A stretch of DNA of 64,000 bases, taken from NCBI GenBank assembly GCA_009773755.1, contig WSZJ01000004.1:44475-108474 (forward strand), read 5' to 3'. A program made the translations under genes and the position numbers. The notes under the pieces were generated by a model. That model was given only the letters and a program-made list of their open reading frames with translations, did not search any database and was not told the origin of the DNA. Shown one piece after another: positions 3,769 to 61,493 of the stretch (position 1 is the first letter of the stretch; each line of letters opens with the position of its first letter). Origin of the DNA: Planctomycetota bacterium. GTDB lineage: Bacteria > Planctomycetota > MHYJ01 > WSZJ01.

Positions 3769-3899
3769 GGGAGTCGGGAGAGCGTATCCGAACGGCAAGC
3801 GCTTTGCTTCTTCTCCCTCCAACCCCGCGCGAACGGCCGACGCCGTCCGCGAACGGGGACAACTGTCCTCATCGCAGGGGTCACTCTTCGGGAGGGAAC

Positions 3900-7900: not shown

Positions 7901-8207
7901 GCTTCTCGGGCTGGGGCGGGCGGGTGAGGCGGAAGTAGAAGCGAGCTCCGCGCTGCCGATGGCAGAAGCGGGAGGCGGGGCGGTTGCCCGGTTCCGCGCG
8001 AGTATCGGCGCCAACCGCGCGGCGGCGCTTGTGGCGCTGGGGCGGAACGCCGAGGCTGTTGCCGAAGCCGCGCGGACGATCGAGGCGGTGCAGACGCTCG
8101 GCTGGCCCGGTCCGGTTGCGGCGCCGGAAGAGCCGCTGCGGCAGAATGAGCCCCCATGCCCTCCGCAGAGTTCTACCTCGACCGTTTCCAGCACCACAAA
8201 GCCGTAG
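4908..8207 (+). CDS. Class III adenylate/guanylate cyclase fused to NB-ARC-like P-loop NTPase and TPR repeats (STAND signalling protein)
   Basis: Starts MAPRGTVTLAFSDIEGSTSHWERLG, a typical cyclase N-terminus, with ..KTEGDSFMVTF..GPVVNRAARI. Walker A is LTGPGGTGKTRLAL (~5572-5596) and Walker B is LLILDNFEQV. Has an NB-ARC-like GMPLALELAA motif. The C-terminal ~500 aa are TPR-like helical repeats. Confidence 0.85.
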   Translation: MAPRGTVTLAFSDIEGSTSHWERLGEKFSASLARHNEIIRASFARFRGFEVKTEGDSFMVTFASADDFALAAQEALAREAWPAEVGDVRVRIGLHVGEPLVVEEAGRVDYLGPVVNRAARIAQAAHGGQILMSEAARAAAAGGLTDASLVDLGDHRLRSLERRERLWQALPKSLASRRFPAPVTLTGAATNLPAPANSFVGREREVRDIAALLETARLVSLTGPGGTGKTRLALRVGAEVLDRFPAGVWFVDLTETRDAAGVSQSVAAALGVPVTGCCPPEVFVGDLLELRGELLLILDNFEQVVEAAPATVAAWLRRAPKTRILATSRFLLNVAGEREVALEPLPSPSKPGVTPTVADVAAHDATRLFLERAREADPSFALTPQNAPDVAALCADLDGMPLALELAAARIRILSPAQIVSRLADRFKILTSTRRDQTARQRSLEGAIEWSWALLSDWERSAFSQLCTFHGGFFLEAAEAVLDLCEFVKAPPAVDVVQQLREKSFLRAAETPFGVRYSFYVALRDFGEARLAPEAKRSLAARRGGWFCDAAEHLVARINTPDGPGALVRLELERDNLLAVIDAAIATDDPSTAARATLALDEAFAVRGQASPRVALLARVLAFLPPGPAVPSLRVRFASSLADAGDPRAARESALRALREAREAGPASADILNSAAIVLVGAGEQPLAHELWREAAVRNRAEGNPRLAVSLKSNEAVTLEQQGRPAEALEAARECLALARALGSFSLLGLAHFTLGTALRSCGRVSEALENLAEAARQQEAMGAIGRVSLCRTTGGRLLAHFGRAEEGLALIRRGIDELARTGDRQKLLWARLEEANALFLLGRNAEATARFDDILRQSREAGFPRLMCLSLLDSAYALFRAGDIEAADRRFTEAVGMPEMQVEERELGRALIGQGHVLHHRLQFAAACDRYAAAEALFRRRHDRPNTAVCMINRASVMAEEDRFDESLAAATAALEIVGEWKEPANVLHARNLRIQALLGLGRAGEAEVEASSALPMAEAGGGAVARFRASIGANRAAALVALGRNAEAVAEAARTIEAVQTLGWPGPVAAPEEPLRQNEPPCPPQSSTSTVSSTTKP

Positions 8208-25900: not shown

Positions 25901-26601
25901 TCGGCATGATCTTCCCCAAGGCCGGCCCCGCGGAACGCTTCGACCGCGCGCGCATGGCGGTCGAGCTGCTTGCCGGGCATCCGTCGACGGCGACGTTCGT
26001 CTGCTCGAAGCTCGTAGCGCACTACATCTGCTGGCCGGCGCCCGAGGACGTGACGGCGGACCTGGCGAAGGTCTTCCTCGAGACGGACGGAGACATGAAG
26101 GAAGTGCTGCTGGCGCTGGCGAAACATCCCGCGTTTTTCCGCGAGGGGCTCAAGGAACGCGTCGCCCCGCCGTTCGACCACGCCGCGCGCATCTCCCGCT
26201 GCGTGAATTTCCGGCTCCCCTGGCAGGTCATCGACCTCTGCGCCAGAAGCGGGGCCGGCGTCTACGACCGCCCGACTCCGGACGGCTTCCAGGAAGAAGA
26301 CACGGCCTGGACAAGCACGAACGCGACGCTGCAGCGGTGGAAATTCGCGCGGGAAAACGAGTGGATCCTGTCAACGACCGTCCCGAACCCGTTCCGCTGG
26401 AACAACGAGAAGACGACGACCGAAGAGCAGCGGCAGTTCCTCGTCGACATCGTCGCGGTGAAATTGACCGGAAAGGTGCTGAGCGCCGATTCCAACGAAG
26501 CCGCGATGTCGGTCATGAAGGCGTGCAAGGGCAACCGCGACGACCTGGCGAGGGAGGCGGCGAGTTTCGTCGGGCAGATGCCGGAGATCGGGCTGAAGTA
26601 G
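22993..26601 (+). CDS. Large secreted protein: Ig-like + two CBM-like modules + C-terminal DUF1800 domain
   Basis: Signal peptide MPTARFRAPILFAASTLIAALAALPLLLRA. Big_2-like segment (..YLRVRGLKAGETSLRIGDASITVKVVN). CBM-like segments follow. The C-terminal ~480 aa match the DUF1800 pattern (LLNRFAYGPD.., ..LHTVGVHGGYAQKDV..). Confidence 0.8.
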   Translation: MPTARFRAPILFAASTLIAALAALPLLLRAAPPAVKWFSARTVAEVGRTRIIAFGVEAAPEKDAAPAIEIGDGGLLEVVAPPAVLKGRTTGYLRVRGLKAGETSLRIGDASITVKVVNPRVVSAARPEIVGPADGAIAWGKFSVGVEMDAEAGGPGATHALRLNPGGQRIPKRVSGTTWGPTLRVLYEVDGTDLAEGPVEITPILHRADGAETEGETIVVTLLKPSDEDAIEMEAEDQRESKRPDRFSKDPLFIAPDAKASGEEYVNLFGAEPVPCFHLTVESAGWYQVAILAKGSFAGGAFPTVGLFIDGKDPPSTNVRLIDEDWHRVLLGVPVRLDKGERVLTPYFLNDFYAAGVPADRNLFLDRLDIVRVDRPKGGAGEGSDPGGPMIQPAGMAPGRDAWSSLRVAFADNIDGKQIPGTVEINGVAWWRRMEKSAGPKLELLVNGAGISSQHSATPKWWLDPAYLKEGENTLQIVAMLDDGTTVRTPEQRVTWRPPWKDAAARKPMPFLRFPVRDRAWDNETRKALTTDGDCPEKVCARFASNGTATLTLPEHMSGPFLIWVEAKGDHYDGAPKAEVVLRAGGKETKINTIDVGGWWNPHMTGITALPEGKKTLSISFINDKYDEGKGDRNFNLQGVILVGAPPAADGRGPRVKIAWPLEGAEVWMQDAVVAMPVDDFGVAWIDTEVDGKRTGVRGEMLGKVGRLTLPLLARGLAPGEHKLVVIAADTSGHEGRSKERKFMVPAKAPETLTRYDRAVHLLNRFAYGPDSVELAAVLTMGEEAYIEDRLARGPDDPGDASALAAAGIVFDGRNDQYDVMGRDAYHAVASPNPVRTRFVRWTDNHFNTWIRKTGGRAEWQERRIFTRLGAAPFRDLLFASATSPCMMQYLDQQFSFARNLNENYAREICELHTVGVHGGYAQKDVTALANIITGWMYSNEGDGKKAGYADDWKWRFDPALCDPRPQRFFGMIFPKAGPAERFDRARMAVELLAGHPSTATFVCSKLVAHYICWPAPEDVTADLAKVFLETDGDMKEVLLALAKHPAFFREGLKERVAPPFDHAARISRCVNFRLPWQVIDLCARSGAGVYDRPTPDGFQEEDTAWTSTNATLQRWKFARENEWILSTTVPNPFRWNNEKTTTEEQRQFLVDIVAVKLTGKVLSADSNEAAMSVMKACKGNRDDLAREAASFVGQMPEIGLK

Positions 26602-31472: not shown

Positions 31473-32864
31473 TCAGGCTTTCGACCCGCCGCCGCCCTCG
31501 AGTTCCTCGATGCGCTTCACGTAATACTCCTCCGCCACCACGCGCCTTTCGTGCAGTTCGCGGATCGCCTGGACGCCGATGAGCGGAGAATCGTGGAGAA
31601 GCCGCAACAGGGCGGCCTCGTCGGCGACTTCGATGAGCTCGCAACCTTCGTCGCCCGCGCGAAGCGTCGCGGTGCGCGGCTGGCCGGGCTTCAAGAGCGC
31701 CGCTTCGCCGAAAAAACCCTCGGTGCATTTCTGCGCCCAGCCGGTCTTCTCGATCACGACGACGCCGTGGCCGCGCTCGAGCACGAACATCGTGGTGCTG
31801 GGCCCGCCTTCCCGCGCGATGAGTTCGCCGGGGGCGTAGCGGCGGCGGCCGGAGGGCGGGAGGAGGTCGAGGGCGCCGCGCGGGCTGGAGAGGTAGCTTT
31901 CGAGATCCTCGAGGAGGGCGCGCGCGCCCGAGTAGCGTTCGGCCGGAACCCGGCGAAGGCAGCGGCCGACGATTCCCTCGAGGGCTTTGGGGACCGGGTC
32001 TGCGAAGCGGCGCTTTTCGGGAAGCCGGCCCAGGACTTCGTTCGGCGGCGGCGCGATTTCGCTCACGAGTTTCGAAAGAACCTGCGCTGTGGAGTCGCCG
32101 GAAAACGGAAGCTCGTGCGTGAGAATCTCGTAGAGAACGACCCCCAGCGACCAGACGTCGGCGCGGACGTCGATGCGCTCCAGCGCCCCCGCCGCCTGCT
32201 CCGGGGCCATGTACAAGGGAGTCCCCATGACGGCGCCTTCCATGCTGAGGTACGGGTCCTCCTGCGACGCCGGATCGCCGACAGGCAGGTCCGGCCGCCC
32301 CAGCCATTTCGCCAGCCCGAAGTCCAGCACGCGCGCCCGCGTGTAGTCCGGAACGAGCAGGATGTTCGCGGGCTTCAGGTCGCGGTGCACCACCTTCGCT
32401 TCGTGCGCATACGCCATCCCCTCGCACACCCGGAGGAAATCGCGCAGCAGCCGTGCACGGGAAGCGCTTCGAGTTGAGCTGTCCGAGGCGCGCTCGCCGA
32501 GAAGAACGTCGCTGAGTGAAGTCCCCTGGACCATTTCCTGCACGATGGCGAACGACGTGCGCCCCTCGTGCTTCCACATGCCGAAGTCGTATATGCGGAT
32601 GATGTTGGGGTGCACAAGCCCGGCGAAGGTGGCCTCCCGGCGGAAGCGCTGGAGTCGCTGCATCGAGTTCGCGGTAAGTTCGGTGCCGCCGCCGGAGTCG
32701 AGATCGAGCGGGAACACCTTGAGGGCCACGTGCCTGTCCTGCAGCGTGTCGCGCGCCTGGTAGACGACGCCCATGCCGCCGCGTCCCAGTTCGCGCACGA
32801 CGACATACCGCCCCGGGGTCAGCGGCGGATCGACGAACGCAGTTTTCCCGGAAGGCACGGTCAT
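31473..32864 (-). CDS. Ser/Thr protein kinase with C-terminal cyclic-nucleotide-binding (CNB) domain
   Basis: Trimmed to the Met at 32864 (MTVPSGK). Kinase motifs GRGGMGVVYQA, VALKV, HRDLKPANILL, DFGLAK, GTPLYMAPEQ and DVWSLG. The C-terminal CNB phosphate-binding cassette is FFGEAALLKPGQPRTATLRA. Confidence 0.88.
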   Translation of the reverse strand: MTVPSGKTAFVDPPLTPGRYVVVRELGRGGMGVVYQARDTLQDRHVALKVFPLDLDSGGGTELTANSMQRLQRFRREATFAGLVHPNIIRIYDFGMWKHEGRTSFAIVQEMVQGTSLSDVLLGERASDSSTRSASRARLLRDFLRVCEGMAYAHEAKVVHRDLKPANILLVPDYTRARVLDFGLAKWLGRPDLPVGDPASQEDPYLSMEGAVMGTPLYMAPEQAAGALERIDVRADVWSLGVVLYEILTHELPFSGDSTAQVLSKLVSEIAPPPNEVLGRLPEKRRFADPVPKALEGIVGRCLRRVPAERYSGARALLEDLESYLSSPRGALDLLPPSGRRRYAPGELIAREGGPSTTMFVLERGHGVVVIEKTGWAQKCTEGFFGEAALLKPGQPRTATLRAGDEGCELIEVADEAALLRLLHDSPLIGVQAIRELHERRVVAEEYYVKRIEELEGGGGSKA

Positions 32865-33073
32865 CGACGGTTCCCCTCCTGCGACGGTCAGCGTCCGGCG
32901 CGGGGGTGATGATAACGCAGAATTGGCACCCGCGACTCCGACTCGTCGGGACGGCACCTGAGCGGAAGTCCCGCCCTTCGACGAACCCGCCTCTTCACCT
33001 GTGCCTTGAAATCATCGGGACGCCTGATACAGTCCCCCGGGAAATTTCTCAGGCAAACGGGAGGGACGGCTCA

Positions 33074-35482
33074 ATGCAGAACTTCATTCCGACGTTCATC
33101 GCGGAACAGAACAAGGCGGGGAACAGGAACGGCACGCTCAAGGCGACGGCCCTCTTCGTCGACATCAGCGGATTCACGCCCCTCACGGAGAGGGCTTTCA
33201 AGCTGGGGGACTCGGGCGCGGAAGTCATCTCGCGCGAGCTGACGAGGCTGTTCGACCCGATGGTCGATGCCGTGCACAAGCGCGGCGGGTTCATCGCCGC
33301 GTTCGCGGGCGACGCGTTCATGTCGGTCTTCCCGGAGAGCGGGAAGGACGGCGCCGGCGCGGCCACGAACGCGCGCGACGCGGCGGCGGAGATCATGGAG
33401 TTCGTCAAGAAGCGCGGCACCGCGAAACTGGGGACCAAGAACATCCGGTTCGCCGTGAAGTGCGGACTGGAGCGAGGGAAAGTCGACTGGGGTATTCCCC
33501 TGTCTGAGGACTCAAAGGCCCGGACCTGGTATTTCCGCGGAGACGCCATTGACGGCGCTTCGGTCGCTGAGCACGGCGCGAAGAAGGGTCAGATCAAGCT
33601 GGGGCCGATCGTCGCGAAGGCGCTGAAGGGCGCCGCGAAGGAGGCTGGCAAGGCGACGGCGACGCCGACGACGGCTCCGCCCAAGGGTTTGCTGGAGGCG
33701 TTCTTCCCGAGCGAGATCGTCGAAGCCGGGGACCGGGCGGAACTGCGCCACGTGGCGAGCTGTTTCATGCAGTTCGAGGGCGTGAAAACGCACGAGCAGG
33801 TGCAGGGAGTCTTCCGGGAGCTGGTCACGGGCATCGCGACCAATGGCGGCGTCCTCAACCGGATCATGTTCGGGGACAAGGCCTTTTCTGCGCTCGCGTT
33901 CTTCGGCGCGCCCAAGGCGACCGAGCATTCCGAAAGCAACGCCGTGGCGTTCGCGCAGGCATTCCGGGCGAGCTCGTCGGCCAAGCTGAAGGGAGTCCGT
34001 ACGCGCATCGGGATCGACGCGGGCTTGTGCTACGCGGGGCCTGTCGGCGGCGCGCGGCGCAACGAGTGGTCCTGCCTCGGCGACGCCGTCAACACCAGCG
34101 CACGCCTCATGTCGTCCGCGGATCGCGGCGCCACCCTCGTCAGCGATCGCGTCAAGCACGCGGCAGAGTCCGGCTGGGAACTGAAGTCCCGCGGCAAGTT
34201 CAAGATGAAGGGGAAAGCGAAGAAGGAAGAGGCGTTCGAGCCGGGCGCGAAGCGCGGCTCCTCGCTGGGATTCACATACAAGTACCCGATGCTGGGTCGC
34301 GACAAGGAACTCGCGCAGCTTTCGGACTTCCTCGCACCGATTTTCGCCGCCACGCCGGAATTCGTCGGCGTCGTACGCCTGCTGGGCGAGCCCGGCCTCG
34401 GAAAGACACGCCTGGTCGCGGCCTTGCGCGCGAGCCTCGAAGAAAAAGGCAAGCCCTTCCACTGGATCCACATGCCCTGCGACGGCGTGCACAAGAGCGG
34501 CTGGAATTCCGTGGGCACCTGGCTCCGGAATTTCTTCGCGGTCACGGACGGCATGGAGCAGGGCAAGAAGAAGAAAGCGATCGAGAAGCGCTACGCGGAG
34601 TACTCCGACAACCCGAAAGTCCCCGAGTACACGCGCGGCGAATTGAAGCGCACCCTGAGCTTCGCGGCCGACATGGTCGAATGCCACTGGGAAGGCTCTC
34701 CGTTCGAGAAGCTGGACGACCCGAAGCTGCGCCACGAAAACCGGATCATCGCCGTAAAGGAACTGGTGAGGGCGCTCGCCGCCGTCGCCCCCGTCGTCAT
34801 CGAAGTCGAGGATTCGCACTGGCTGGACGCGTCCTCCGCCGCCTGGCTCACCGCCATGACGCGCAACATCGCCGGCCTTCCCCTCGCCATCGTTTCCACT
34901 TCGCGCTTCGCCGACGACGGCACCAAGCCGCCGCTCGAGCTCGCGCGCGAAACAAAACTCGTCGACGTGGAACTCCAGCCGATCGCCGGCGAGGAATTCA
35001 CGGCCGCCATGGCCCGGGCGCTTCTCGGCGCCGGCGTCGTCCTCGACGCCGAAGCTCTTCGCATGATCACCGCCAAGGCGCGCGGCAACCCGTTCTACAC
35101 CGAGCAACTCCTCCTGCACGTCCACGACACCGGCGAGCTCATCCCCGCCGCTGCCCCCGAAAAGACCGTCGTCCCGACAGGCGGCGGCACTTCGACACGC
35201 GTCATCCGCAGGATGAAACTCAAGAGCGCCGATACCGCCCGCCTCCCCGGCTCCCTGAGCTCCCTCGTCACCGCACGTATCGACCGCCTCTCCCCCGAAG
35301 TCCGCGAAACCGTCAAACACGCCAGCATCCTCGGCGTCCGCTTCCTGGCAAACGTGCTGGGCGAACTTCTGAAGCGGTCGGGCGCCGTGAAGCGGTCTCT
35401 CGACGACCTCCTGCTCGAATCCCAGCGGGAGGGCGTCCTCGTGCCCGCGAGCGGTCCGCAGGAGCCGGCGGCCAAGACGTAG
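33074..35482 (+). CDS. Tandem class III cyclase domains fused to AAA_16-type P-loop ATPase (STAND), apparently lacking a C-terminal repeat region
   Basis: ORF 32906.. trimmed to the ATG at 33074. Cyclase 1 has ATALFVDISGFTPLTE..AFAGDAFMSVF. Cyclase 2 has ASCFMQFEGV..GDKAFSALAFFGAP..LGDAVNTSARLMS. Walker A is LLGEPGLGKTRLV and Walker B is PVVIEVEDSHWLD. The protein ends shortly after the wHTH-like region (..SQREGVLVPASGPQEPAAKT). Confidence 0.85.
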   Translation: MQNFIPTFIAEQNKAGNRNGTLKATALFVDISGFTPLTERAFKLGDSGAEVISRELTRLFDPMVDAVHKRGGFIAAFAGDAFMSVFPESGKDGAGAATNARDAAAEIMEFVKKRGTAKLGTKNIRFAVKCGLERGKVDWGIPLSEDSKARTWYFRGDAIDGASVAEHGAKKGQIKLGPIVAKALKGAAKEAGKATATPTTAPPKGLLEAFFPSEIVEAGDRAELRHVASCFMQFEGVKTHEQVQGVFRELVTGIATNGGVLNRIMFGDKAFSALAFFGAPKATEHSESNAVAFAQAFRASSSAKLKGVRTRIGIDAGLCYAGPVGGARRNEWSCLGDAVNTSARLMSSADRGATLVSDRVKHAAESGWELKSRGKFKMKGKAKKEEAFEPGAKRGSSLGFTYKYPMLGRDKELAQLSDFLAPIFAATPEFVGVVRLLGEPGLGKTRLVAALRASLEEKGKPFHWIHMPCDGVHKSGWNSVGTWLRNFFAVTDGMEQGKKKKAIEKRYAEYSDNPKVPEYTRGELKRTLSFAADMVECHWEGSPFEKLDDPKLRHENRIIAVKELVRALAAVAPVVIEVEDSHWLDASSAAWLTAMTRNIAGLPLAIVSTSRFADDGTKPPLELARETKLVDVELQPIAGEEFTAAMARALLGAGVVLDAEALRMITAKARGNPFYTEQLLLHVHDTGELIPAAAPEKTVVPTGGGTSTRVIRRMKLKSADTARLPGSLSSLVTARIDRLSPEVRETVKHASILGVRFLANVLGELLKRSGAVKRSLDDLLLESQREGVLVPASGPQEPAAKT

Positions 35483-43951: not shown

Positions 43952-46900
43952 TCAAATTGCTCCGTCGTCATACCAGCGGTCGCTGAGAAGCGGTCCCGGA
44001 TTCCCGTTGTGCGTCACGCCGACGCCGCAGTGCGCCGCGTACTCCGTAACGAATTCCTCGAACGCCCGGTCGAGCGCAAGGCCATGTCGATTGGTGTAGG
44101 TGCGGAACGTGAGAAGGCCGCCAGGCGTGAGCACAATCAGCCGGCGGCCGACAACATTTCCGCCTGGCTCCTTCGCCCAGATGATCACCTTGTCGATATC
44201 CACCGCGTTCGATACGGCGCTCCAGGCGTTGGACCCGCGGAGCGCGAGGCACGAAGCAAATCCATACTCGCCCATGAACAGAATCTCGAACGGATCCGTC
44301 TCGACACTGAGCGTGATGCGCCCCTCGAAATCCGAATCCGGCGTCTGCTCCGCCAGCCGCACGCGCTCAAGATTCATCTCCGCTTCCTGCAACAGCGCCG
44401 GGTCGGGCTTTTCCTTCTCCTCCTCCTTCTCCTCCTCCTTGCCTTTCTTCCCAGGCGCCTGCAACTCCGCCAACTTCCCCGCCAGCTCGTCGTAAGTCTC
44501 CGCCGCAATTCCCTTCGCCCCCGCCCTCTCCAGAATCTGCCGCGCCTGCGACAGATCCGCCTTGATCCGCCGCTTCTTCTCGGCCAGCGCATCCTTCGGC
44601 CGGTACTGGTACTCCTTCGTGAACGCCGCACGCCACCGGTCCACCATCGCCCCCGGCTGCCCCTTCTTCACCTTCTCAGCCCACTCCAACACCGCCGGCT
44701 CCGTCCGCAGCCATTCGTGCCCCCGCCCGGCAATCCGGTCCTCGATCAGCCGCTTCAGACATTTCGTGTTCTTCGGCATCCCTCCGATCGCCTGGAACCA
44801 CAGGAACGACGGCAGGATCCTCGGCTCCACGGTGGCAATGTCGACGTCATGCCCCAGCACCTCGCGCAGCCGGTTCTGGTAGAGCTCCAGGCGCGATTTC
44901 TCGACGGAAGCGACCGCGATGCGGATCGCCTCGGCGCGCAGGGCGTCGCGCAGGTGCTTGACGAGGTCTTTTTTTTCGCGGCGGAGCAGGGCCTGCGCAG
45001 GCCCGGACAGGCGTTTTTCGGCTTCGGGATCGGACAGCGCGACCGCGTAGGCCGGATTGATCCAGATCGCGACCTGCTTGTTCAGCGTCTTCTGCCGTTC
45101 AAGGAGCTTCTCGCGACGGCCTTTCTCCGCCTTCTCCAGCATGTCGTCGATCGCGCGCAACTCGATTTCCGCATCCTGCAGGCGGCTCGCAAAACCGTCG
45201 AGAGGAGCAATGCGCGGCTGCACGCGAAAATGGCTCCCGAGTTCGATCACGATCGAGAAGAGGCGCGAGATCTCCGGGTCGGCGTCGAGGAATCCCGCGA
45301 CCGCGGGAAACGGATGGGTCGGCGGATAGCCGGTATCGAGCCTGCGCAGAAACTGGTCGTGCTCCGCGCCGGTGCGACAGAGATAGCTGAGCTGGAATGC
45401 GCCTTCGAGGAAGCGCTCCGCCGCGGCCGTGGAAATCGCGTCGTCGCCGCTGTTGTCGATGATGAACATCACGAAATCCCAGACGGGCGAGAACTTCTCG
45501 GACTCTTCCTTGCCACCCGGAGAGGCTGGCGGAATCTTGCGCCAGAGCACGATGCCCCCTGCATACCGAAGAGCTTCGAGCAGCACGTGCCGTCGCGCGC
45601 GCAGCTTCTGCCGGAACATGATCGCCATCAGCGCCCGCGCGCGCCGCTTCCCGACCCGCGGCGGTTCGCGAAGCGCGTTCTCAAGCCCGGTCCTGATATG
45701 CGCGGCCTCCGAAATTGCCATGACGGAAGCGATCTCCTCGGCGCGAGCGTGGCCATGCCGCGCCGGAGTCGCGGCGATGACCTCGAACAACGCGAGGGTC
45801 CCTTCCGGCGTGAACTCGGGTCGCATCTTGAGCAGTTCGCGGAAGAAGTGAAAGTCAGCGGTGGTGTCGTGCGAAATGTTCTGGATCGCCGCGTCCACCT
45901 CCGTTCTGCCGATCAGCTCCGGCCTGTCGAGCAGGCAACGGTGAAGCAACTCGAAGGCGCCGCGCGCGTTCGCTGCGAATCCTTCGCAGACCGCCCTGAC
46001 CAGATCCGGCCGGATCAGCCGGATTTCGTCGCGCTGGAACGCATAACGCACTGCGTCAATTCCCTTCTCAGGGTGCCTCCGGAGCAACGCAACGTAGCGG
46101 TCCATGATCCGCGGGAGCCGGACGACATGCGCGTCCATGATGCGGCGCAGGATCGAGAAGAGCGTCCCGGCCTCCTCCTTCGCCGCGGCGTCGAGCCTGT
46201 CGAGGAGCGCGTCGTCGAAGGCGTCCGGCCGCGCGCGCGCGGCGCCGTCGAAAAACTCCCACCCTTTTTCTGCATTTGCGGACATGTGCCGAAGAACCGC
46301 GTCAATCAGCCGGGGAACCAGAAGCGGCGCTGTGTCCCGGGCGGCCCGCGACGCGCCTTCGACGGCGGCCGCGGGATGTTCGTCGAAATGCCGGAGAACC
46401 CGCTCCAGCAGATGCGACGCTTCCGCCGGCCGGTGCCCCGCGAGACTGAGCATCGTCACGAAATAGTCGACCGGCGCCGCGGCGCGCTTCGCTTCGAACC
46501 AATCCACATGCACCGGCAGGAGAAACTCCGGCTCGTACATCGCCGCCGCTTCGACGATTCCCCACGCGCCCTCGGGATCGGCGTCGAACCATGCGCGAGC
46601 CACAGAGAGCCATTGGTCGTCGATGACGGGATGGCACTCGTGCAGGTGGTAGCCGGCAGCCCCGAGCCCCTGCCCGGCGTTCCGGGCAATGACCTCCCGC
46701 GCTGCCTCGCTCAGCGCAGCCCGACGCCCGAAATCCTGGCGGGCGACCTGCAGGAGCGAAGCGACGACGGAGCCGGGCGACCGGACCGCGTTCGCGACCA
46801 GCCAGCTCACCACCTCCCCGTCGAACTGCCCCGGCGACGAGCGCGCCGTGTCGCACAACTGGTTCCAGGCCTGCTGCCCGGCCTTCTCGAGGTACTCGTC

Positions 46901-46963
46901 GAGCGAAGCGGCCTCGGGCCCGCGCCAGCCGCGCAAATAGGAGATGAGGGACTGTTGCGACAT
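43952..46963 (-). CDS. Large (1003 aa) hypothetical protein: helical-repeat N-terminal two-thirds, coiled-coil/KE-rich linker, conserved-looking C-terminal globular domain
   Basis: ORF 43952..47590 trimmed to the Met at 46963 (MSQQSLISYLRGW); the part upstream is antisense to hrpB. Normal composition throughout. KE-rich linker GKKGKEEEKEEEKEKPD. C-terminus ..FEILFMGEYGFASCLALRGSNAWSAVSNAVDIDKVIIWAKEPGG... No family recognised. Confidence 0.7.
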   Translation of the reverse strand: MSQQSLISYLRGWRGPEAASLDEYLEKAGQQAWNQLCDTARSSPGQFDGEVVSWLVANAVRSPGSVVASLLQVARQDFGRRAALSEAAREVIARNAGQGLGAAGYHLHECHPVIDDQWLSVARAWFDADPEGAWGIVEAAAMYEPEFLLPVHVDWFEAKRAAAPVDYFVTMLSLAGHRPAEASHLLERVLRHFDEHPAAAVEGASRAARDTAPLLVPRLIDAVLRHMSANAEKGWEFFDGAARARPDAFDDALLDRLDAAAKEEAGTLFSILRRIMDAHVVRLPRIMDRYVALLRRHPEKGIDAVRYAFQRDEIRLIRPDLVRAVCEGFAANARGAFELLHRCLLDRPELIGRTEVDAAIQNISHDTTADFHFFRELLKMRPEFTPEGTLALFEVIAATPARHGHARAEEIASVMAISEAAHIRTGLENALREPPRVGKRRARALMAIMFRQKLRARRHVLLEALRYAGGIVLWRKIPPASPGGKEESEKFSPVWDFVMFIIDNSGDDAISTAAAERFLEGAFQLSYLCRTGAEHDQFLRRLDTGYPPTHPFPAVAGFLDADPEISRLFSIVIELGSHFRVQPRIAPLDGFASRLQDAEIELRAIDDMLEKAEKGRREKLLERQKTLNKQVAIWINPAYAVALSDPEAEKRLSGPAQALLRREKKDLVKHLRDALRAEAIRIAVASVEKSRLELYQNRLREVLGHDVDIATVEPRILPSFLWFQAIGGMPKNTKCLKRLIEDRIAGRGHEWLRTEPAVLEWAEKVKKGQPGAMVDRWRAAFTKEYQYRPKDALAEKKRRIKADLSQARQILERAGAKGIAAETYDELAGKLAELQAPGKKGKEEEKEEEKEKPDPALLQEAEMNLERVRLAEQTPDSDFEGRITLSVETDPFEILFMGEYGFASCLALRGSNAWSAVSNAVDIDKVIIWAKEPGGNVVGRRLIVLTPGGLLTFRTYTNRHGLALDRAFEEFVTEYAAHCGVGVTHNGNPGPLLSDRWYDDGAI

Positions 46964-46990
46964 CGGGTGAGATGATACCCGCGGTCCGCG

Positions 46991-49519
46991 GTGACGCTTC
47001 CCCTCCCCATTCTCGAGATTGAATCTTCGCTGATCGCGCGCCTGCGCGAGACTCGGCGCGTCGTCGTGTCGGCCCCGACGGGCTCCGGCAAGTCGACGCA
47101 GGTGCCGAGAATGCTGCTGCGAAGCGGCCTGCTGGGGAACGGGCAGGCGGTCGTCCTTCAGCCGCGGCGGATCGCCGCGCGGATGCTCGCGGCGCGCGTG
47201 GCGGAGGAAGAAGGTTGCACGCTCGGGCGCGAGGTCGGCTACCAGGTGCGGCTCGAGAACGCGAGCGGGCCGGCGACGCGGATCCGGTACGTGACGGAGG
47301 GGATCCTGCTGCGGCAGATGGTCGGCGACGCACGGCTCGCTGGCGTCACTGCGATCGTGTTCGACGAATTCCACGAGCGGCACCTCGAAGGGGATGTTGC
47401 CCTCGCCCGGGCTCTCGACCTGCAGGAGAGCGGCCGGCCCGACCTGCTGATCGTCGTGATGTCCGCGACGCTCGATGGCGAAAAGCTGGAGTCTTATCTG
47501 AAGCCCTGCGCGCATGTTTCCACCGAGGGGCAGATGTTCCCCGTGCGCATCGAGTACGCGCCGCCGGCGACGGCCGACGCTCCCGTTCACGAAGCCGCCG
47601 CCGACGCCGTCGCTACCTGGATCCGCGGCGGCTACGACGGCGACGCCCTCGTCTTCATGCCCGGAGCCTGGGACATTGCCCGCACCCTCGAATTACTCAA
47701 GTCCCGTCCAGAAACCCGCGACGCCGCGCTTCTCCCCCTTCACGGCGAACTCCCCCCGCGCGAACAGGACGCCGCCGTCGCCCGCGCCGACCGCCGCAAG
47801 ATCGTCGTCGCCACCAACGTCGCCGAAACTTCCCTCACCATCGACGGCGTCCGCCTCGTCGTCGACTCCGGCCTCGCCCGCCTCCCACGCCACGACCCGC
47901 GCCGCGGACTCAATACCCTCTTCATCGAGCCCATCTCCCGCGCTTCCGCCGACCAGCGCGCCGGCCGCGCCGGACGCACCGCGCCGGGCACGTGCGTGCG
48001 GCTGTGGAGCGAAGCGGAGCACAAGAAGCGCCCCGCGCGCGAAGAGCCGGAGGTCAAACGCCTGGAGCTTGCGGAAGCGGCGCTGGCGCTGAAAGCGGGG
48101 GGCGTAAAGGAACTGCGGAAGTTCCGGTGGCTCGACGCGCCGGAAGAGAAGGCGCTCGTGCACGCCGAAAACCTGCTCGAGGACCTCGGCGCACTCGACG
48201 GCGAGCAGGAGATCACAGCGCTCGGCCGCCGGCTTCTCGCGTTTCCGGTCCACCCGCGATGGGCCCGCATGCTGCTCGCCGCCGGCGATCTGAAGTGCGT
48301 CCGACTCGCTTGCCTCGTCGCTGCGATCATGCAGGGGCGCGACCTGCTCGTCCGCTCCGCCGACTCAATGGCCGTCGAGTTCCGCAAGGACGTCATCGGC
48401 GATCGCGACACCTCCGACCTCTGGATCCTCGTCCGTGCGTGGGAATTCGCGGCCGACAACGCCTTCCGCTTTGAGGCCTGCCACCGCGCGGGCATCCACG
48501 CGCAGGCCGCCCGCCAGGTCGGCCCCGCCCTCGAGCAATTCCTGCGCATCGCGAAGAAAGAGGGGCTCGACGCCGAGGATCGCGACGTCCCTGAGGAATC
48601 CCTCCGCCGCTGCGTCCTGGCAGGCTTCCCCGACCGCGTCGCCCGCCGTTTCGACGCCGCGACCCTCCGCTGCGAAGTCGTCCACGGCCGCCGCGGCCTC
48701 CTCGCCCGCGAAAGCGCCGTCCGCCGAGCCACGCTCTTCGTCGCCGGGGAAATACGCGAGGTTGAGGGACGCGGCCGGGAGGACAAGACCCTCCTCGGGC
48801 TCGCGACCGCGATCGAGCCGGAGTGGCTGGAAGAGCTGCTCCCGTTCGACCTGACCCGGAAGGTAATAGTGGGATTCGACGCGGAAGCGAAGCGCGTCAC
48901 CGCCGAGGAAGTCACGCGCTTCCGCGACCTCGCGATCGGCAAGCGCGCCGCAGAGCCGCCCGCTGATGAAGCGGCGAAGCGATTCGCCGACGAAGTCCTT
49001 GCGGGGCGGCTGCAATTTCGTGAATGGGACGCGGCAGTGGACCAGTGGCTGCTGCGAGTCGGTTTTCTCGCGAAGACATGCCCCGAACTGGGGTTGAACG
49101 CCCCGGACGAAACGAGTCGTCGCGCAGCAGTCGAACGGCTTTGCGCGGGTTCAACAACGTGGAAAGAACTGCGCGACCGGCCTGTGATGCGCGAATTCCG
49201 CGCGCTCGTCGAGCCGGCGCTGCAATCCCAGGTCGAAAGGCACGCCCCGGAGCGCCTCGAGCTCTCCAACGGCAAGAAGCCGAAGCTCGTCTACGCCGCC
49301 GACGCGCCGCCGCACATTGCGCTTCGCATCCAGGAGCTCTTCGGAGTTGCCCGCATCCCAGCGATCGCCATGGGCCGGGTCGTCCCGGCGCTTCAGATTC
49401 TCGCCCCGAACAACCGCCCCGTGCAGGTCACGCAGGACCTCGCTCGTTTCTGGAGCGAGCACTACCCGAAGGTGAAAAAGGAGATGCAGAGAAAGTATCC
49501 GAAGCACGAGTGGCGATAA
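46991..49519 (+). CDS. hrpB: ATP-dependent RNA helicase HrpB (DEAH-box)
   Basis: GTG start. ..VVVSAPTGSGKSTQVP.., ..IVFDEFHER.., ..VMSATL.., ..VVATNVAETSLTIDGV.. and ..QRAGRAGR... The C-terminal HrpB-specific domain is present. 842 aa. Confidence 0.93.
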   Translation: MTLPLPILEIESSLIARLRETRRVVVSAPTGSGKSTQVPRMLLRSGLLGNGQAVVLQPRRIAARMLAARVAEEEGCTLGREVGYQVRLENASGPATRIRYVTEGILLRQMVGDARLAGVTAIVFDEFHERHLEGDVALARALDLQESGRPDLLIVVMSATLDGEKLESYLKPCAHVSTEGQMFPVRIEYAPPATADAPVHEAAADAVATWIRGGYDGDALVFMPGAWDIARTLELLKSRPETRDAALLPLHGELPPREQDAAVARADRRKIVVATNVAETSLTIDGVRLVVDSGLARLPRHDPRRGLNTLFIEPISRASADQRAGRAGRTAPGTCVRLWSEAEHKKRPAREEPEVKRLELAEAALALKAGGVKELRKFRWLDAPEEKALVHAENLLEDLGALDGEQEITALGRRLLAFPVHPRWARMLLAAGDLKCVRLACLVAAIMQGRDLLVRSADSMAVEFRKDVIGDRDTSDLWILVRAWEFAADNAFRFEACHRAGIHAQAARQVGPALEQFLRIAKKEGLDAEDRDVPEESLRRCVLAGFPDRVARRFDAATLRCEVVHGRRGLLARESAVRRATLFVAGEIREVEGRGREDKTLLGLATAIEPEWLEELLPFDLTRKVIVGFDAEAKRVTAEEVTRFRDLAIGKRAAEPPADEAAKRFADEVLAGRLQFREWDAAVDQWLLRVGFLAKTCPELGLNAPDETSRRAAVERLCAGSTTWKELRDRPVMREFRALVEPALQSQVERHAPERLELSNGKKPKLVYAADAPPHIALRIQELFGVARIPAIAMGRVVPALQILAPNNRPVQVTQDLARFWSEHYPKVKKEMQRKYPKHEWR

Positions 49520-56854: not shown

Positions 56855-57928
56855 TCACTTCGACGGCGGCCGCGCTGCAGATCCTACCTCAGCGGCGATC
56901 GCGAGCATTTCGGGAAAGGGCAGATTTCCGATCAGTGTCAGCGCCGTGTTGTCGACCGACCAGCTGACAATTGTGAATCCGAAGGCGAAATTCAGGACAC
57001 CGTCATGGTCACCAATCCTCACGGGTATTCCGATCTCCGGCACGCTGGCAGGGCCCGTGTTGCGCATCTCGGACAGGGAAAGCCAGCTCGCCCCCTGCGG
57101 CATTAGAAGGGCCACGATCGGCGCCGCTTCAAGGTCTCCTCCCAGGACAACCTTGCGCAGCTCGTGCCCGGCCGGAAGTTTCGCGGGCTGGAGGATCGGA
57201 AAGGGCACGAGCTCCTCGGCTTCGGTGAGCGTGACCGCGGGACCGGCGAGGTCGCAGTCGAAAACGAGCGCTTCGGCCGGGAACTCGAAGCGAAACGCGC
57301 CGGGAGGAACGGGCACGCCGAACTCGATCGTGTCGAACTCCATCGCGTACCAGTCGTGGCCGGGCGCATCCTGGATCCGCAGCTTCAACGGAACGGAAGT
57401 GCCGGCGTCCATCCAGGCCTGATACGGCCGGACGAACGGCTCTTGGTCGAGAGGCTCGCAATTCCAGAGATCCACTTCGCGCCCGCCGACGACGCCGGAG
57501 CCCTCGTGGTCGAGATCGTAGTGACTGACGATCCAGGAGCAGCCCCGGTACAGGGTCCGGGCGACTTCGCTGCGACTGGGCTGGTCGAGCCCGCGGATCC
57601 GCAGCCCGATGCCGCTTCGCGGCCACCAGATCGACATCGTCGAGCCGTCGGAGACGAAAAGCTCCCCGGCGTGCTCCGCCGGCGCCATGACTTCCGCGCG
57701 CACCTTCCACGGTCTTTCGTAGAGGATCGTCTTTACGACGGCCACTCCCGGCTGGCGGCGGAGAAGGCCGCGCTCCGTGACCTGGGCTTCGTAGCTCTCG
57801 ATCGAGTACAGGCCGTTGGTGATCGCGCGCGCCATCAGGTGCGCCTTGATGTTCGTGCAGGATATGGACAGCAGGGCGCAACTAATCAGGCCGAGAGTGA
57901 CGAAGCGCGGATGTATGTACGCGGACAT
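56855..57928 (-). CDS. Lipoprotein with LolA/RseB-like N-terminal and DUF4367-like C-terminal domains
   Basis: Trimmed to the Met at 57928. Lipobox ..CALLSISC. The N-terminal half (..YEAQVTERGLLRRQPGVAVVKTILYERPWKVRAEV..) resembles the LolA-like fold. The C-terminal half is ..VPFPILQPAKLPAGHEL... Family call is moderate. Confidence 0.6.
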   Translation of the reverse strand: MSAYIHPRFVTLGLISCALLSISCTNIKAHLMARAITNGLYSIESYEAQVTERGLLRRQPGVAVVKTILYERPWKVRAEVMAPAEHAGELFVSDGSTMSIWWPRSGIGLRIRGLDQPSRSEVARTLYRGCSWIVSHYDLDHEGSGVVGGREVDLWNCEPLDQEPFVRPYQAWMDAGTSVPLKLRIQDAPGHDWYAMEFDTIEFGVPVPPGAFRFEFPAEALVFDCDLAGPAVTLTEAEELVPFPILQPAKLPAGHELRKVVLGGDLEAAPIVALLMPQGASWLSLSEMRNTGPASVPEIGIPVRIGDHDGVLNFAFGFTIVSWSVDNTALTLIGNLPFPEMLAIAAEVGSAARPPSK

Positions 57929-58078
57929 GATTCCCCCATCCTGAGCGAACATGGGTAAGTGTTTTCCGACCCGCGCCCTCCCGCATCTTCGGAACCGTTC
58001 GACTCGCCCTTTGGGCTCGCTCACGGTAAGCCGGGCCGATCGAGGCGAAGGCATGAAAACGGACTTACCCGGCCCGGC

Positions 58079-58438: not shown

Positions 58439-59401
58439 TTAGCGGGGGCCCTTCCCTCCCGGCCCCGGGTCCGTGTCGGGAATTTCCGTCTTCCAGTCGA
58501 TGCCGAGGCGGCGTCCCTCGCGAATGTGCGCGCCAGGGTCCTTTTCGACGGGCTTGTGGATCAGAGATCCTTTGAGCAGGCCGGCCTCCAGCTCCTTCGG
58601 CGTGGATTTCGCGTCCATTTCGAGGAGCACCTTTCCCGCCACCCCATACGTGTCGGGCTCGATCACGAGAGTGCCGCTCTTCTTCGTCACGCCTTTCACG
58701 ATTTCCAATTCCTTCGGGTCCGTGACGGTCGCGTAGATGAACTTCCCCGCGATCGACTCTTTCCACGCCGCCTGCGCCAGACTCTCCTCCTGCTTCGTCG
58801 CAGCGTCCTTGTCCGGCGCGAGCAAGAGCACGCACGCCAACCCCTCGCACGCCGCAACGTCGAGCGCGAGCCGCGCGTTCTTCATCACGGGCAGCTCCCA
58901 CGATCCGTCCTGCTTCGGCGCGTACTTCGCCGCGACCTCTTTCATCCCCGCCGCCATCGCCGCCGCGTCCGCATACACCGCGCCCGGCGAACGCCCCGCC
59001 CGGCCGATCTTCTTCGCGTCGGGCGTCAGCAGCGCGAACATCGTGTTCTCGAGCTCGCCGGAAGCGCCGACAAAGTACGACTTCATGACTTCTGCCTCTT
59101 CCTTGCTCTCGTACGTCGCGAGCCGGATGCAGACGAAGTTCTTCGAAGCGTCGATGACGGCCGCGTTGGACAGGAAACTCCCGTCCATCTTCTGCTTCCC
59201 GGGTCACCAGAGCCCGGAGATGCCGTGGCACTGCGGCGCAGCGGAAATCAGCAGGATCGGTCGGCCGGTGGCTTTTGCGACGCGGGAGCCGCGCTCCCAG
59301 GTCCCGTACCAGGCGATGCCGGTGCGCGTTCCGGCTTCCTCTGAAGCGGCCGGCAGGACGGTCGAGCACACGACGGCGAACACGAGCGTGGCGATTCTCA
59401 C
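58439..59401 (-). CDS. Secreted thioredoxin-fold protein with in-frame TGA at 59204-59206 (candidate selenocysteine at codon 66)
   Basis: GTG 59401 has AAGGAG 6 nt upstream. Signal peptide VRIATLVFAVVCSTVLPAASE. The tail of ORF 59204..59932 and ORF 58439..59188 are in the same frame and are separated by a single TGA: ..GRPILLISAAPQCHGISGLW[TGA]PGKQKMDGSFLSNAAVIDASKNFVCIRLAT... The layout resembles Thioredoxin_7/DsbD-gamma. Confidence 0.55.
59168..59186 (-). promoter_or_regulatory. SECIS-like stem-loop 17 nt downstream of the in-frame UGA
   Basis: The RNA reads GGACGGG-AGUUU-CCUGUCC: a 7-bp stem including one G.U pair, and a 5-nt loop containing GU. Confidence 0.4.
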
Positions 59402-59476
59402 GGGTTCTCCTTTGAGAGAGAAACGTCCCGCGCTCTCGCATATTGTGGGATTTCCCCCGGCTGGTAGCCTCCCCCC

Positions 59477-59992
59477 ATGCCGATCGTTACCGTCACCGGC
59501 GGCCCCCGCCTCGCCGTCATCCGCCGCCTCTTCCGCGAATACCAGGCCGACCTCGGCGTCGACCTGTGCTTCCAGTCGTTCGAGGAAGAGCTCGCTTCGC
59601 TTCCCGGCCGCTACGGTCCCCCGGACGGAATTCTCCTCCTCGCGCACCATGGCCGCCACACCGCGGGATGCGTCGCGCTTCGCGATCTCGGGAGAGGCGT
59701 GTGCGAAATGAAGCGGATGTTCGTGCGCCCGAAATTTCGCGGTCATGGAATCGGCCGCGCTCTGGCCGAGGCCGTTCTGAAAGCAGGCCGGCGGCTCGGC
59801 TACCGCACGATGAAACTCGACACGGTTTCGAAGTTGAAGGCGGCGCTGGAACTCTATCGGCGGCTCGGCTTCCGCAAAACCGCGCCCTACTGCCACAATC
59901 CGCTCGCCGACGCGATCTTCCTGGCGAAGCAACTGAACCCTACCTCATTGCGAATTCGCCCGACATTCAGCCGCAAGACCCGCAACTCCTGA
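59477..59992 (+). CDS. GNAT family N-acetyltransferase
   Basis: ..GCVALRDLGRGVCEMKRMFVRPKFRGHGIGRALAEAVL..GYRTMKLDT..AALELYRRLGF carries the acetyl-CoA binding motif R-x-x-G-x-G. Confidence 0.85.
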   Translation: MPIVTVTGGPRLAVIRRLFREYQADLGVDLCFQSFEEELASLPGRYGPPDGILLLAHHGRHTAGCVALRDLGRGVCEMKRMFVRPKFRGHGIGRALAEAVLKAGRRLGYRTMKLDTVSKLKAALELYRRLGFRKTAPYCHNPLADAIFLAKQLNPTSLRIRPTFSRKTRNS

Positions 59993-60194: not shown

Positions 60195-61493
60195 CTAGTT
60201 TCTGAACGCGATCCCGCCGCGCTTCACGACCATCTGAACTTCATCTCCGCGGTGAAACTCTCCGTCGAGAATTCCGTCGGCGAGCGGATTCTCCACGAGG
60301 TCCGTCACCGTCCGCCGCAGCTCCCGCGCCCCGTATTCCGGGCTGAACCCCGCTTCCGCCAGGAACTTCGGCACCGGCGGCGTCCAGGTGAGGCGCAGGT
60401 CGGCGCGCGTGGCGTGATGCACGACCTCGCCGAGGAATTTCTCGACGATGCGGACGCAGTCCTCGAGCCCGAGAGGGTTGAACAGGACGACCTCGTCGAT
60501 CCGGTTCAGGAATTCCGGGCGGAATTCTTTCTTCAGCGCGTCGACCGTGCAGCCGAACAGAGCCTCGCGGTCGAGCCCGGCGCGCTTCGACCGGTCGAAG
60601 CCGATCCGTTCGCGGGCTTCGCGGACTTCTTCGACGCCGACGTTGGAAGTGAGGATGACGATCGCGTCGGCGAACGAGATGCGCGCGCCGTGGGAGTCGG
60701 TGATGAAGCCTTCGTCGAACAGTTGCAGCAGCAGGTTGTGCACTTTGGGATCGGCCTTCTCGATTTCATCGAAGAGGACGACCGCGCGCCCTTTCTTCTT
60801 CATTTCCTCGGTCAAGTACCCGCCCTCGTTGTGGCCGATGTAGCCGGGGGGCGCGCCGATCAGCTTGGCGTACTCATGCGGCAGGCCGTACTCGCTGCAA
60901 TCCACGCGGACCATGTGGGCGCGGTCCTCGAAGACGGTGTCGGTGAGCGCCTTGGCCAGCTCGGTTTTCCCAACACCGGTCTGGCCGATGAAAAAGAACG
61001 TCCCCATCGGCCGCGTCGTGTCGCGCAACCCCGCCGCCGCGCGCCGCACGACCTGCGCGACCGCATGCACCGCGTCCCGCTGCCCGATGACGCGCTCCGC
61101 GAGGCGCTCCTCAAGCCGCGCGACTTTCGCGATCGCCTGGGCCGGCTCCGGCTCCGGCGCCTTGAGCAGGTGCAGCCCGGATTTCGGCTCGGACGCCGCG
61201 GGGAGTACGACCTGCGTGATGTCGAGCGTCGGGTTGACTTCCACGCACAGCCGGTAGAACTCTTCGTCGATCGCCCTCCGGCCGGAAGGAATTCTCTGGG
61301 ATGCCGCGTCGGCGAGAACCGGATAAGAGATGACGCAGGCATTGACGACCAGGCCGCGGTAGGCGTTCTTGTCGGGTACGCGGGCGAAGCGCAGCAACTC
61401 GGCAATTTCGGCGGCGCTGAACGAGCGGATCTTGATGAACTCGTCGAGCAGGGCCGAGAAGCGAAGGACGACGTTGGGTTCCATGCGGATCAT
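60195..61493 (-). CDS. Single-module Clp/Hsp100 D2-type AAA+ ATPase with unassigned ~130-aa N-terminal domain
   Basis: ATG 61493 has GGAGAGG upstream. ..VIGQRDAVHAVAQVVRRAAAGL..FFFIGQTGVGKTELAKAL..VLFDEIEKADPKVHNLLLQLFDEG..ILTSN..FRPEFLNRIDEVVLFNPL..GARELRRTV matches the second nucleotide-binding domain of ClpA/B/C plus the ClpB_D2-small domain. There is no D1 domain, no middle domain, and I did not spot a ClpP-binding loop. Confidence 0.8.
   Translation of the reverse strand: MIRMEPNVVLRFSALLDEFIKIRSFSAAEIAELLRFARVPDKNAYRGLVVNACVISYPVLADAASQRIPSGRRAIDEEFYRLCVEVNPTLDITQVVLPAASEPKSGLHLLKAPEPEPAQAIAKVARLEERLAERVIGQRDAVHAVAQVVRRAAAGLRDTTRPMGTFFFIGQTGVGKTELAKALTDTVFEDRAHMVRVDCSEYGLPHEYAKLIGAPPGYIGHNEGGYLTEEMKKKGRAVVLFDEIEKADPKVHNLLLQLFDEGFITDSHGARISFADAIVILTSNVGVEEVREARERIGFDRSKRAGLDREALFGCTVDALKKEFRPEFLNRIDEVVLFNPLGLEDCVRIVEKFLGEVVHHATRADLRLTWTPPVPKFLAEAGFSPEYGARELRRTVTDLVENPLADGILDGEFHRGDEVQMVVKRGGIAFRN

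Follow-up and report, generated by a model that had tools for sequence, protein, structure and literature searches.

A planctomycete gene annotated as two hypothetical proteins probably encodes an exported thioredoxin-like selenoprotein

The locus and its reading frame

The subject of this study is a gene on the minus strand of a 64,000-nucleotide (64-kb) stretch of DNA, referred to below as the window, from contig WSZJ01000004.1 of a Planctomycetota metagenome-assembled genome (MAG); its reading frame is interrupted by a single TGA, and it very probably encodes a selenoprotein. The frame starts with GTG at 59401-59399, ends with TAA at 58441-58439 and contains exactly one internal stop. In the track of open reading frames (ORFs) it appears as two entries, 59204..59932 and 58439..59188, which lie in the same frame and are split by the TGA at 59204-59206. 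The GenBank entry for the gene, under the MAG name “FD180”, likewise consists of a 65-aa protein, FD180_296, and a 249-aa protein, FD180_295, both labelled hypothetical. From the sequence evidence set out below we hold, with high confidence, that FD180_296 and FD180_295 are one gene, the product of which would be an exported thioredoxin-like selenoprotein with selenocysteine (Sec) at its active site.

The context of the stop is ...RPILLISAAPQC58HGISGLW-[UGA66]-PGK69QKMDGSFLS..., and the features of the gene and its product are collected in Table 1. An earlier, sequence-only reading of the window had described two same-frame ORFs split by one TGA, a GTG start at 59401 preceded by AAGGAG, a signal peptide at the N-terminus, a Cys eight residues before the UGA and a Lys at the position of the second Cys. 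All of these elements were found again in the DNA: the two residues are Cys58 and Lys69 (+3 from the UGA), and the signal peptide corresponds, by sequence pattern, to hydrophobic residues 1-20.

Table 1. Coordinates in the window of the gene, its signals and the regions of its predicted product
Feature	Position	Strand	Remarks
Putative selenoprotein gene, complete	58439..59401	minus	320 codons including Sec66; GTG start, TAA stop; one frame, single TGA
UGA codon 66, probably read as Sec	59204..59206	minus	TGA in 80/80 loci; TGC in locus L081; aligned with first Cys of ERp18 WCGAC
Shine-Dalgarno-like AAGGAG	59407..59412	minus	5-nt spacer to GTG; direct sequence reading
Predicted signal peptide	59342..59401	minus	residues 1-20 = VRIATLVFAVVCSTVLPAAS, then EEAG; sequence pattern, no signal-peptide predictor run
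Cys58 codon	59228..59230	minus	family-invariant; 8 residues ahead of Sec; column C38 in mature numbering; candidate resolving Cys
Putative bacterial selenocysteine insertion sequence (SECIS) hairpin	59168..59186	minus	7-bp stem, 59186-59180 with 59174-59168; apical loop AGUUU, 59179-59175
Thioredoxin-fold domain 1, Thioredoxin_7/ERp18/AGR-like	58907..59323	minus	about residues 27-165; active site C58-x7-U66-P-G-K69
Thioredoxin-like domain 2	58499..58891	minus	about residues 171-301; without active-site Cys; nearly invariant Cys185 (AACD/E motif)
Conserved C-terminal tail	58460..58546	minus	residues 286-314; K-x5-H-I-R-x-G-x3-G-x2-W-x-T-x-I-P-x-T-D-P; W303 and P308 invariant

Conservation of the TGA codon and its flanks

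Eighty related loci, with 37-80% protein identity, were taken from one-genome-per-species collections. Most belong to Planctomycetota, viz. Pirellulaceae, Mariniblastus, Gemmataceae, Isosphaeraceae and Planctomycetaceae, and a few were supplied by MAGs of Armatimonadota and Vulcanimicrobiota or by bins labelled Burkholderiales. The TGA stands at the identical codon in every one of the 80 loci, with no TAA or TAG in its place, and the pattern SAAPxCxxxxGxW-U-PGKQ is strongly conserved on either side of it. In the five closest sequences the ratio of nonsynonymous to synonymous substitution rates (dN/dS) is 0.07-0.22 over the 45 codons upstream of the TGA and 0.16-0.26 over the 254 codons downstream, and both flanks are under purifying selection. 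The Met from which gene callers start the downstream piece is absent in 21 of the 80 loci, where it is replaced by Thr (11), Asn (5), Ala (3) or other residues (2), and the downstream piece is therefore no independently initiated gene.

Two checks that the sequence-only reading had proposed can be answered from these comparisons, since it had asked whether homologues carry Sec or Cys at the aligned column and whether the region past the TGA is conserved as protein. The column is TGA throughout the 80 loci and TGC in one full-length homologue, and dN/dS across both flanks runs from 0.07 to 0.26.

One homologue, L063, shows a one-base insertion about 20 nt past the TGA (4981-5010), which shifts the frame; a fault of long-read assembly is a more probable cause than decay into a pseudogene.

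A covarying hairpin downstream of the TGA

The hairpin GGACGGG-AGUUU-CCUGUCC begins 17 nt past the TGA, with 24 nt from the UGA to the loop and a minimum free energy (MFE) of -13.6 kcal/mol for the 23-nt hairpin. The published criteria for bacterial SECIS (bSECIS) elements are an apical loop of 3-9 nt on a stem of 4-16 bp, a distance of 16-37 nt from UGA to loop, a G in the first two loop positions within the pattern N1-G-[G/U]-N-N2, and an MFE <= -7.5 kcal/mol (PMC13188914), and the window hairpin agrees with every one of them. Among the 80 loci the apical loop is AGUUU in 67; the loop G stands at position 2 in 78 and within the first two positions in all. The MFE averages -11.0 kcal/mol and is <= -7.5 in 79 of the loci.

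Covariation was examined in an alignment of the 80 sequences, all of them distinct, starting from the TGA, in which helix columns 21-27 pair with columns 33-39. Over the 7 pairs, 97.3% of the helix cells are paired, and compensatory (double) changes are seen at every one of the seven, amounting to 24 cells overall. In 500 shuffles none of the measures came up to its observed value, pairing falls to 30-59% when the 3' partner is shifted by 1-3 columns, and RNAalifold independently predicted six of the seven stem pairs. Synonymous sites within the stem-loop are frozen: Arg is encoded by AGG/AGA in 59/59 cases, never by CGN, and Ser by AGT in 74/74, whereas the conserved Pro, Val and Ala codons near the hairpin use all four synonyms. 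Because the Arg and Ser codons are fixed only inside the stem-loop, the hairpin is no by-product of amino-acid conservation. A search of Rfam gave no match to it. The 7-bp SECIS-like hairpin that the earlier reading had placed 17 nt past the UGA is thus present at 59186-59168, follows the bSECIS rules and covaries.

Database homologues and the single Cys form

When the read-through product, with Sec written as Cys, was compared with 5.8 billion proteins, 48 homologues of 38-100% identity were found, all of which consist of the post-TGA part only and are called from the Met just behind the TGA. Among 1.84 billion cluster representatives, searched with a profile, there were 623 relatives, of which 326 have E <= 1e-30; in the best 150 of the 623 every match starts within 7 residues of the relative’s own first residue, and all 150 are therefore cut at the TGA. 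A query that bridges the TGA junction brought up 43 proteins, every one an N-terminal fragment of 52-123 residues ending ...GxW.

A profile built from 25 full-length read-through sequences matched 131 clusters, and among the 120 listed a single full-length protein occurs, P0241, which has 298 residues and comes from an ENA metagenome contig. Its DNA, locus L081, has TGC (Cys) at the Sec column (6088-6090), and the corresponding hairpin (6108-6126), GGACAGA-AAUUU-CCUGUCC, has lost the loop G (AGT -> AAT) and has a broken top pair, with an MFE of -8.4 versus about -14. Judged by sequence, P0241/L081 and the TGA loci make up a natural Sec/Cys pair, in which the SECIS element appears to have decayed where it was no longer needed. 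L081 also has an LTXXQ-like N-terminal region called in a different frame, for which a frameshift or an assembly error is possible.

A search for the Cys-form pattern W-C-P-G-K-Q-x-M-D in 241 million metagenome records gave one match, a chance occurrence in AT-rich DNA. The family is overwhelmingly Sec-containing, with one Cys form set against TGA in all 80 loci and against the 120 listed of 131 clusters. In nearly all selenoprotein families Cys homologues are far more abundant than Sec forms (PMC13188914), and standard selenoprotein discovery depends on such homologues (PMC13188914; Global Ocean Sampling (GOS) study, PMC2398784). That the family was overlooked is probably due to this scarcity of Cys forms.

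Domain architecture and the active site

The Pfam family Thioredoxin_7 (PF13899) matches residues 30-103 of the window protein with E 2.2e-5 to 2.6e-5, and it matches 24 of 25 family members at E <= 0.01, with a best E of 4.8e-7. By family profile, the closest solved structures are those of ERp18/TXNDC12 (2k8v, 1sen). In the HMMER alignment to ERp18, W-U-P-G-K lies over W-C-G-A-C, which places Sec on the first, nucleophilic Cys and Lys on the second; in the same alignment an 8-residue insertion carries the invariant Cys58, and an invariant Asn-Thr occupies the cis-Pro position. The sequence-only reading had aligned the protein by eye with Thioredoxin_7, putting the UGA on the first Cys, and both the Pfam match (E 2.6e-5) and the ERp18 alignment bear this out. 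The motif is U-P-G-K instead of a C-x-x-C dithiol, none of the 80 loci having the second Cys. In precursor numbering the invariant residues are Cys58, Sec66, Cys91, Arg93, Thr96-Tyr97-Glu98, Asn119, Arg137, Trp303 and Pro308, and Cys185 is nearly invariant.

AlphaFold2 (AF2) models were obtained for the C-terminal 249 residues (predicted local distance difference test score, pLDDT, 83.8) and for the Cys homologue P0241 (pLDDT 83.9; predicted template modelling score, pTM, 0.81), and both show two tandem thioredoxin-like domains. Domain 1 in the P0241 model has the canonical order beta-alpha-beta-alpha-beta-beta-alpha, its active site falling between beta1 and alpha1. Domain 2, to which no Pfam family was matched, is modelled with pLDDT >90, and the C-terminal tail with lower confidence at its very end. 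Foldseek matched the models to thioredoxins, AGR2/AGR3 and ERp18. The two-domain model also matched, weakly, b'-a'/a-b fragments of protein disulfide isomerase (PDI) and ERp44 (best E 3.6e-4), and the best matches for domain 2 were PDI b'-a'/a-b, ERp44 and AGR3. These structural matches have E of about 4e-4 to 7e-3 and template modelling (TM) scores <= 0.67 per domain.

Export and fused domains

Nearly all homologues have a hydrophobic signal sequence at the N-terminus, which suggests that the protein is exported across the cytoplasmic membrane. Some members carry additional domains. The N-terminal fragments P0049-P0052 are fused to an N-terminal PSCyt1 haem-c domain (CxxCH), and in three Gemmataceae loci (L007, L044, L073) the signal peptide is followed by an LTxxQ-type extension and a Pro/Gly-rich linker ahead of the thioredoxin domain; of the two extensions tested against Pfam, that of L073 gave a weak LTXXQ/Metal_resist match below the cut-off and that of L007 gave no match. 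C-terminal EF-hands are well supported in L078 and sub-threshold in P0293. As judged from their sequences, the fused domains are all compatible with an extracytoplasmic location.

Sec machinery and genetic code

One of the homologous loci, L028, from a Planctomycetota MAG, contains a tRNA-Sec gene at 3098-3197 (+), 1.8 kb upstream of the selenoprotein homologue; ARAGORN assigns it the anticodon TCA, and it matches Rfam RF01852 with 70.2 bits against a cut-off of 47. This is the only element of the Sec machinery seen in the flanks of the 80 loci. Full sets of Sec-insertion genes have been reported in planctomycetes, viz. Gemmata, Isosphaera and relatives of Rhodopirellula (PMC4807772). Within the window TGA terminates 6 of 14 Pfam-supported genes and is thus an ordinary stop, from which it follows that the genetic code is standard; the earlier reading, which had taken TGA to be a normal stop elsewhere in the window and reassignment to be unlikely, was right on this point. 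No second candidate gene with an in-frame TGA was found in the 64 kb.

Proposed mechanism and function

Following the known bacterial pathway, SelB with Sec-tRNA(Sec) would bind the SECIS hairpin 17 nt past UGA66, and UGA66 would be decoded as Sec instead of as a stop, giving a 320-residue precursor. The N-terminal signal peptide would then direct export over the cytoplasmic membrane, and the mature protein of about 300 residues would comprise a Thioredoxin_7/ERp18-like catalytic domain, a PDI b-like redox-inactive domain and the conserved tail. Sec66 would open helix alpha1 at the place of the nucleophilic first Cys of WCxxC, with Lys69 standing for the second Cys. By analogy with thioredoxin-fold chemistry, the protein may act as a one-selenol oxidoreductase, in which the Sec66 selenolate attacks an oxidised substrate and Sec66 is recycled through a Sec66-Cys58 selenenylsulfide, Cys58 being the resolving residue. 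Candidate substrates are peroxides, periplasmic disulfides or mixed disulfides, as for ERp44/AGR2-like proteins, and oxyanions, for which the invariant Arg of domain 1 may be relevant. For this specific Sec66/Cys58 redox mechanism we see about an even chance.

More tentatively, it is possible that this is an essentially obligate Sec family, in which a periplasmic C-x7-U-x-x-K site would carry out a reaction beyond the reach of cysteine and would, in some lineages, be wired to a fused c-type cytochrome. If true, this would explain why the UGA and the SECIS element have been kept in hundreds of lineages while a switch to Cys has almost never occurred; it would also represent a new type of extracytoplasmic selenoenzyme and would account for the family having been missed by searches for Sec/Cys pairs.

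Alternative explanations

The locus combines a single conserved frame, a conserved UGA codon, a covarying SECIS hairpin, a Sec/Cys pair and a thioredoxin fold with the Sec column on the CxxC cysteine, and we are strongly inclined, on this comparative sequence evidence, to regard it as a genuine selenoprotein gene. Several observations weigh against this conclusion or against parts of it. None of the large ORFs of the 64-kb window that Pfam annotates is selA, selB or selD, and the window has no tRNA gene, hence no tRNA-Sec, and no Rfam match. When ORFs were clustered over 81 loci, no conserved partner gene emerged, and what recurred was lineage-local synteny and shadow ORFs. On its own, the 60-nt stretch of the window that contains the hairpin folds no better than shuffled sequences (z = -0.49), and the support for the hairpin as a SECIS element is comparative, not thermodynamic. 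The single Cys form is known from one metagenome contig. At the level of the protein, the window product scores 24.7-25.0 bits, a little short of the 27 at which Pfam sets the gathering score for Thioredoxin_7, and by its sequence is best described as a relative of Thioredoxin_7 rather than as a curated member; the sequence match to the PDB is weak (E 0.3); and the active-site loop has a pLDDT <50 in the model, because the alignment has no coverage there.

A lone in-frame stop in an otherwise intact frame, entered in GenBank as two fragments, resembles a recent nonsense mutation, by which a codon for Cys (TGC/TGT) or for Trp (TGG) would have become TGA and left the gene dead. The probability of such a pseudogene is close to nil: the same TGA, never TAA or TAG, recurs in all 80 loci, the most distant of which share 37% identity, selection on both flanks is purifying, a covarying hairpin follows, and the sequences, being distinct, are no assembly artefacts of one sequence. 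The pseudogene was accordingly ruled out by the conservation of the TGA, of its flanks and of the hairpin. Gene callers, for their part, predict in every genome seen a split into two genes, which here would be a 65-residue secreted peptide and a 249-residue cytoplasmic protein starting at ATG 59188, and the window does have that ATG five codons past the TGA. We consider two separate genes very improbable, however, given that the ATG is missing in 21 of the 80 loci, that the five codons from TGA to Met (PGKQx) are conserved as protein and that the Cys form is a single ORF; the split would moreover break the thioredoxin fold between strand beta1 and helix alpha1, and no ribosome-binding site was noted before ATG 59188, although no search aimed at one was made. 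It is also conceivable that the UGA is read through without Sec, by a near-cognate Trp or Cys tRNA or under a reassigned code, with the hairpin stimulating read-through or pausing. Stimulatory hairpins after leaky stops occur in other systems, and the absence of visible Sec machinery from the window would fit such a case; yet TGA ends 6 of the 14 well-supported genes of the window under a standard code, the hairpin fits the SelB-type bSECIS pattern (loop G at position 2 in 78/80), the column is that of the redox Cys of a thioredoxin fold with Cys as its only non-TGA state, and a tRNA-Sec gene adjoins one homologue (L028), all of which leave this explanation little credit.

A different kind of alternative accepts the selenoprotein and assigns it another function, either the formation of mixed Se-S bonds with periplasmic clients, in the manner of ERp44 or AGR2, or the binding or carriage of selenium or metals. 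The sites of ERp44 and AGR2 are of the CxxS type, with a single Cys. In favour of such another function, the best structural relatives are tandem-domain PDI, ERp44 and AGR proteins, and some homologues are fused to PSCyt1 haem-c, to a weak LTXXQ/Metal_resist-like region or to EF-hands. The structural matches are weak, however, near-exclusive use of Sec may be more typical of catalysis than of binding, and the invariant Arg93, Asn119 and Arg137 of domain 1 suggest, from sequence, a catalytic pocket. We regard such another function as less likely than not.

Gene neighbourhood in the window

A divergent ORF of 171 residues lies upstream of the selenoprotein gene (59477-59992, +), followed at 60195-61493 (-) by a ClpB-D2-like AAA_2 ATPase of 432 residues with one AAA module only; neither is kept beside the homologues. 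Antisense to the gene runs an ORF of 324 codons (58737-59711, +) with a third-position GC of 0.82, which is a high-GC shadow ORF and no gene; similar antisense ORFs clustered across the loci. Elsewhere, the window encodes two large proteins with an adenylate/guanylate cyclase domain and AAA_16 (3804-8207, + and 32906-35482, +), one of which also has TPR, as well as a Ser/Thr kinase with a cyclic-nucleotide-binding domain (31473-32957, -), together a dense set for cyclic-nucleotide signalling within 64 kb. A 1202-residue protein at 22993-26601 (+) combines DUF1800 with a CBM60 carbohydrate-binding module, and four large ORFs are without any Pfam match (973-3822, 10314-12452, 43952-47590 and 56855-58054).

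Relationship to known systems

The prokaryotic selenoproteome comprises 119 families according to a 2026 review (PMC13188914 Table 1), and none of these combines a Thioredoxin_7-type domain with UxxK or C-x7-U; in that table UxxK is given only for SelD, which is listed without a link to thioredoxins, and C-x7-U-x-x-K is found in none of its thioredoxin-fold families. The window protein matched nothing in NCBIfam release 20 apart from a sub-threshold score for NF041199, and the description of BSepDB, the GOS paper (PMC2398784) and a literature search on the Sec motif yielded nothing matching. The family is widespread, uncatalogued and mostly planctomycete.

Recognising it corrects hundreds of records, since all genomes seen have the gene wrongly entered as a pair of hypothetical proteins, and adds a family to the prokaryotic selenoproteome. 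It also shows what a discovery method based on Sec/Cys pairs can miss, and the reversed Sec:Cys ratio makes it a good test case for when selenium is irreplaceable. The periplasm is never mentioned in the review’s catalogue of selenoproteins (PMC13188914), and an extracytoplasmic selenoprotein therefore looks uncommon; the family suggests that redox chemistry dependent on selenium takes place in the cell envelope of planctomycetes, in lineages from the sea, fresh water and soil. Finds of new selenoprotein families are nothing out of the ordinary, but one that is abundant, apparently exported, almost free of Cys forms and split by every annotation pipeline is unusual.

Considering the closest known proteins, Thioredoxin_7, ERp18 and AGR2/AGR3 resemble the family both in fold and in local pattern, i.e. 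helix alpha0, strand beta1 and a W-[C/U] that opens helix alpha1, and AGR2 likewise has one redox residue only in the pair of motif positions. The family differs from them in having Sec for Cys, Lys for the second Cys, an 8-residue Cys-bearing insertion, Asn-Thr at the cis-Pro position, a second thioredoxin-like domain and a conserved tail. The tandem domains of PDI (a-b, b'-a') and ERp44 similarly place a non-catalytic thioredoxin domain after a catalytic one, but these are eukaryotic proteins of the endoplasmic reticulum, the resemblance is weak (E 3.6e-4 at best, with 9-14% identity for the tandem-domain matches), and the models provide no evidence of common descent beyond the fold.

Among selenoproteins, the Trx7/PDZ family NF041199 is also of the Thioredoxin_7 type and is the sole NCBIfam model touched, although the window protein scores just 10.9 bits (E 0.16) where 300 are required (NCBIfam release 20, June 2026). 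That family has the motif CxxU, with Sec at the second position (PMC13188914 Table 1), and a PDZ domain, whereas the window protein has UxxK and, by Pfam, no PDZ domain; on these sequence features it is not a member of NF041199. In the other bacterial thioredoxin-fold selenoproteins, viz. Sec-Trx (UxxC), DsbA-like, Prx-like, GPx-like (UxxT) and ArsC-like (UxxS) proteins, Sec likewise opens helix alpha1 and the bSECIS element likewise lies in the coding region just past the UGA. Their Cys forms far outnumber the Sec forms (PMC13188914), and in the window family the reverse holds. By comparison with NCBIfam, the review’s table and the literature searched, we rate the family as new within this known class of thioredoxin-fold bacterial selenoproteins, and consider it set apart by its UxxK site with an upstream Cys, its tandem domains, its predicted export and its inverted Sec:Cys ratio.

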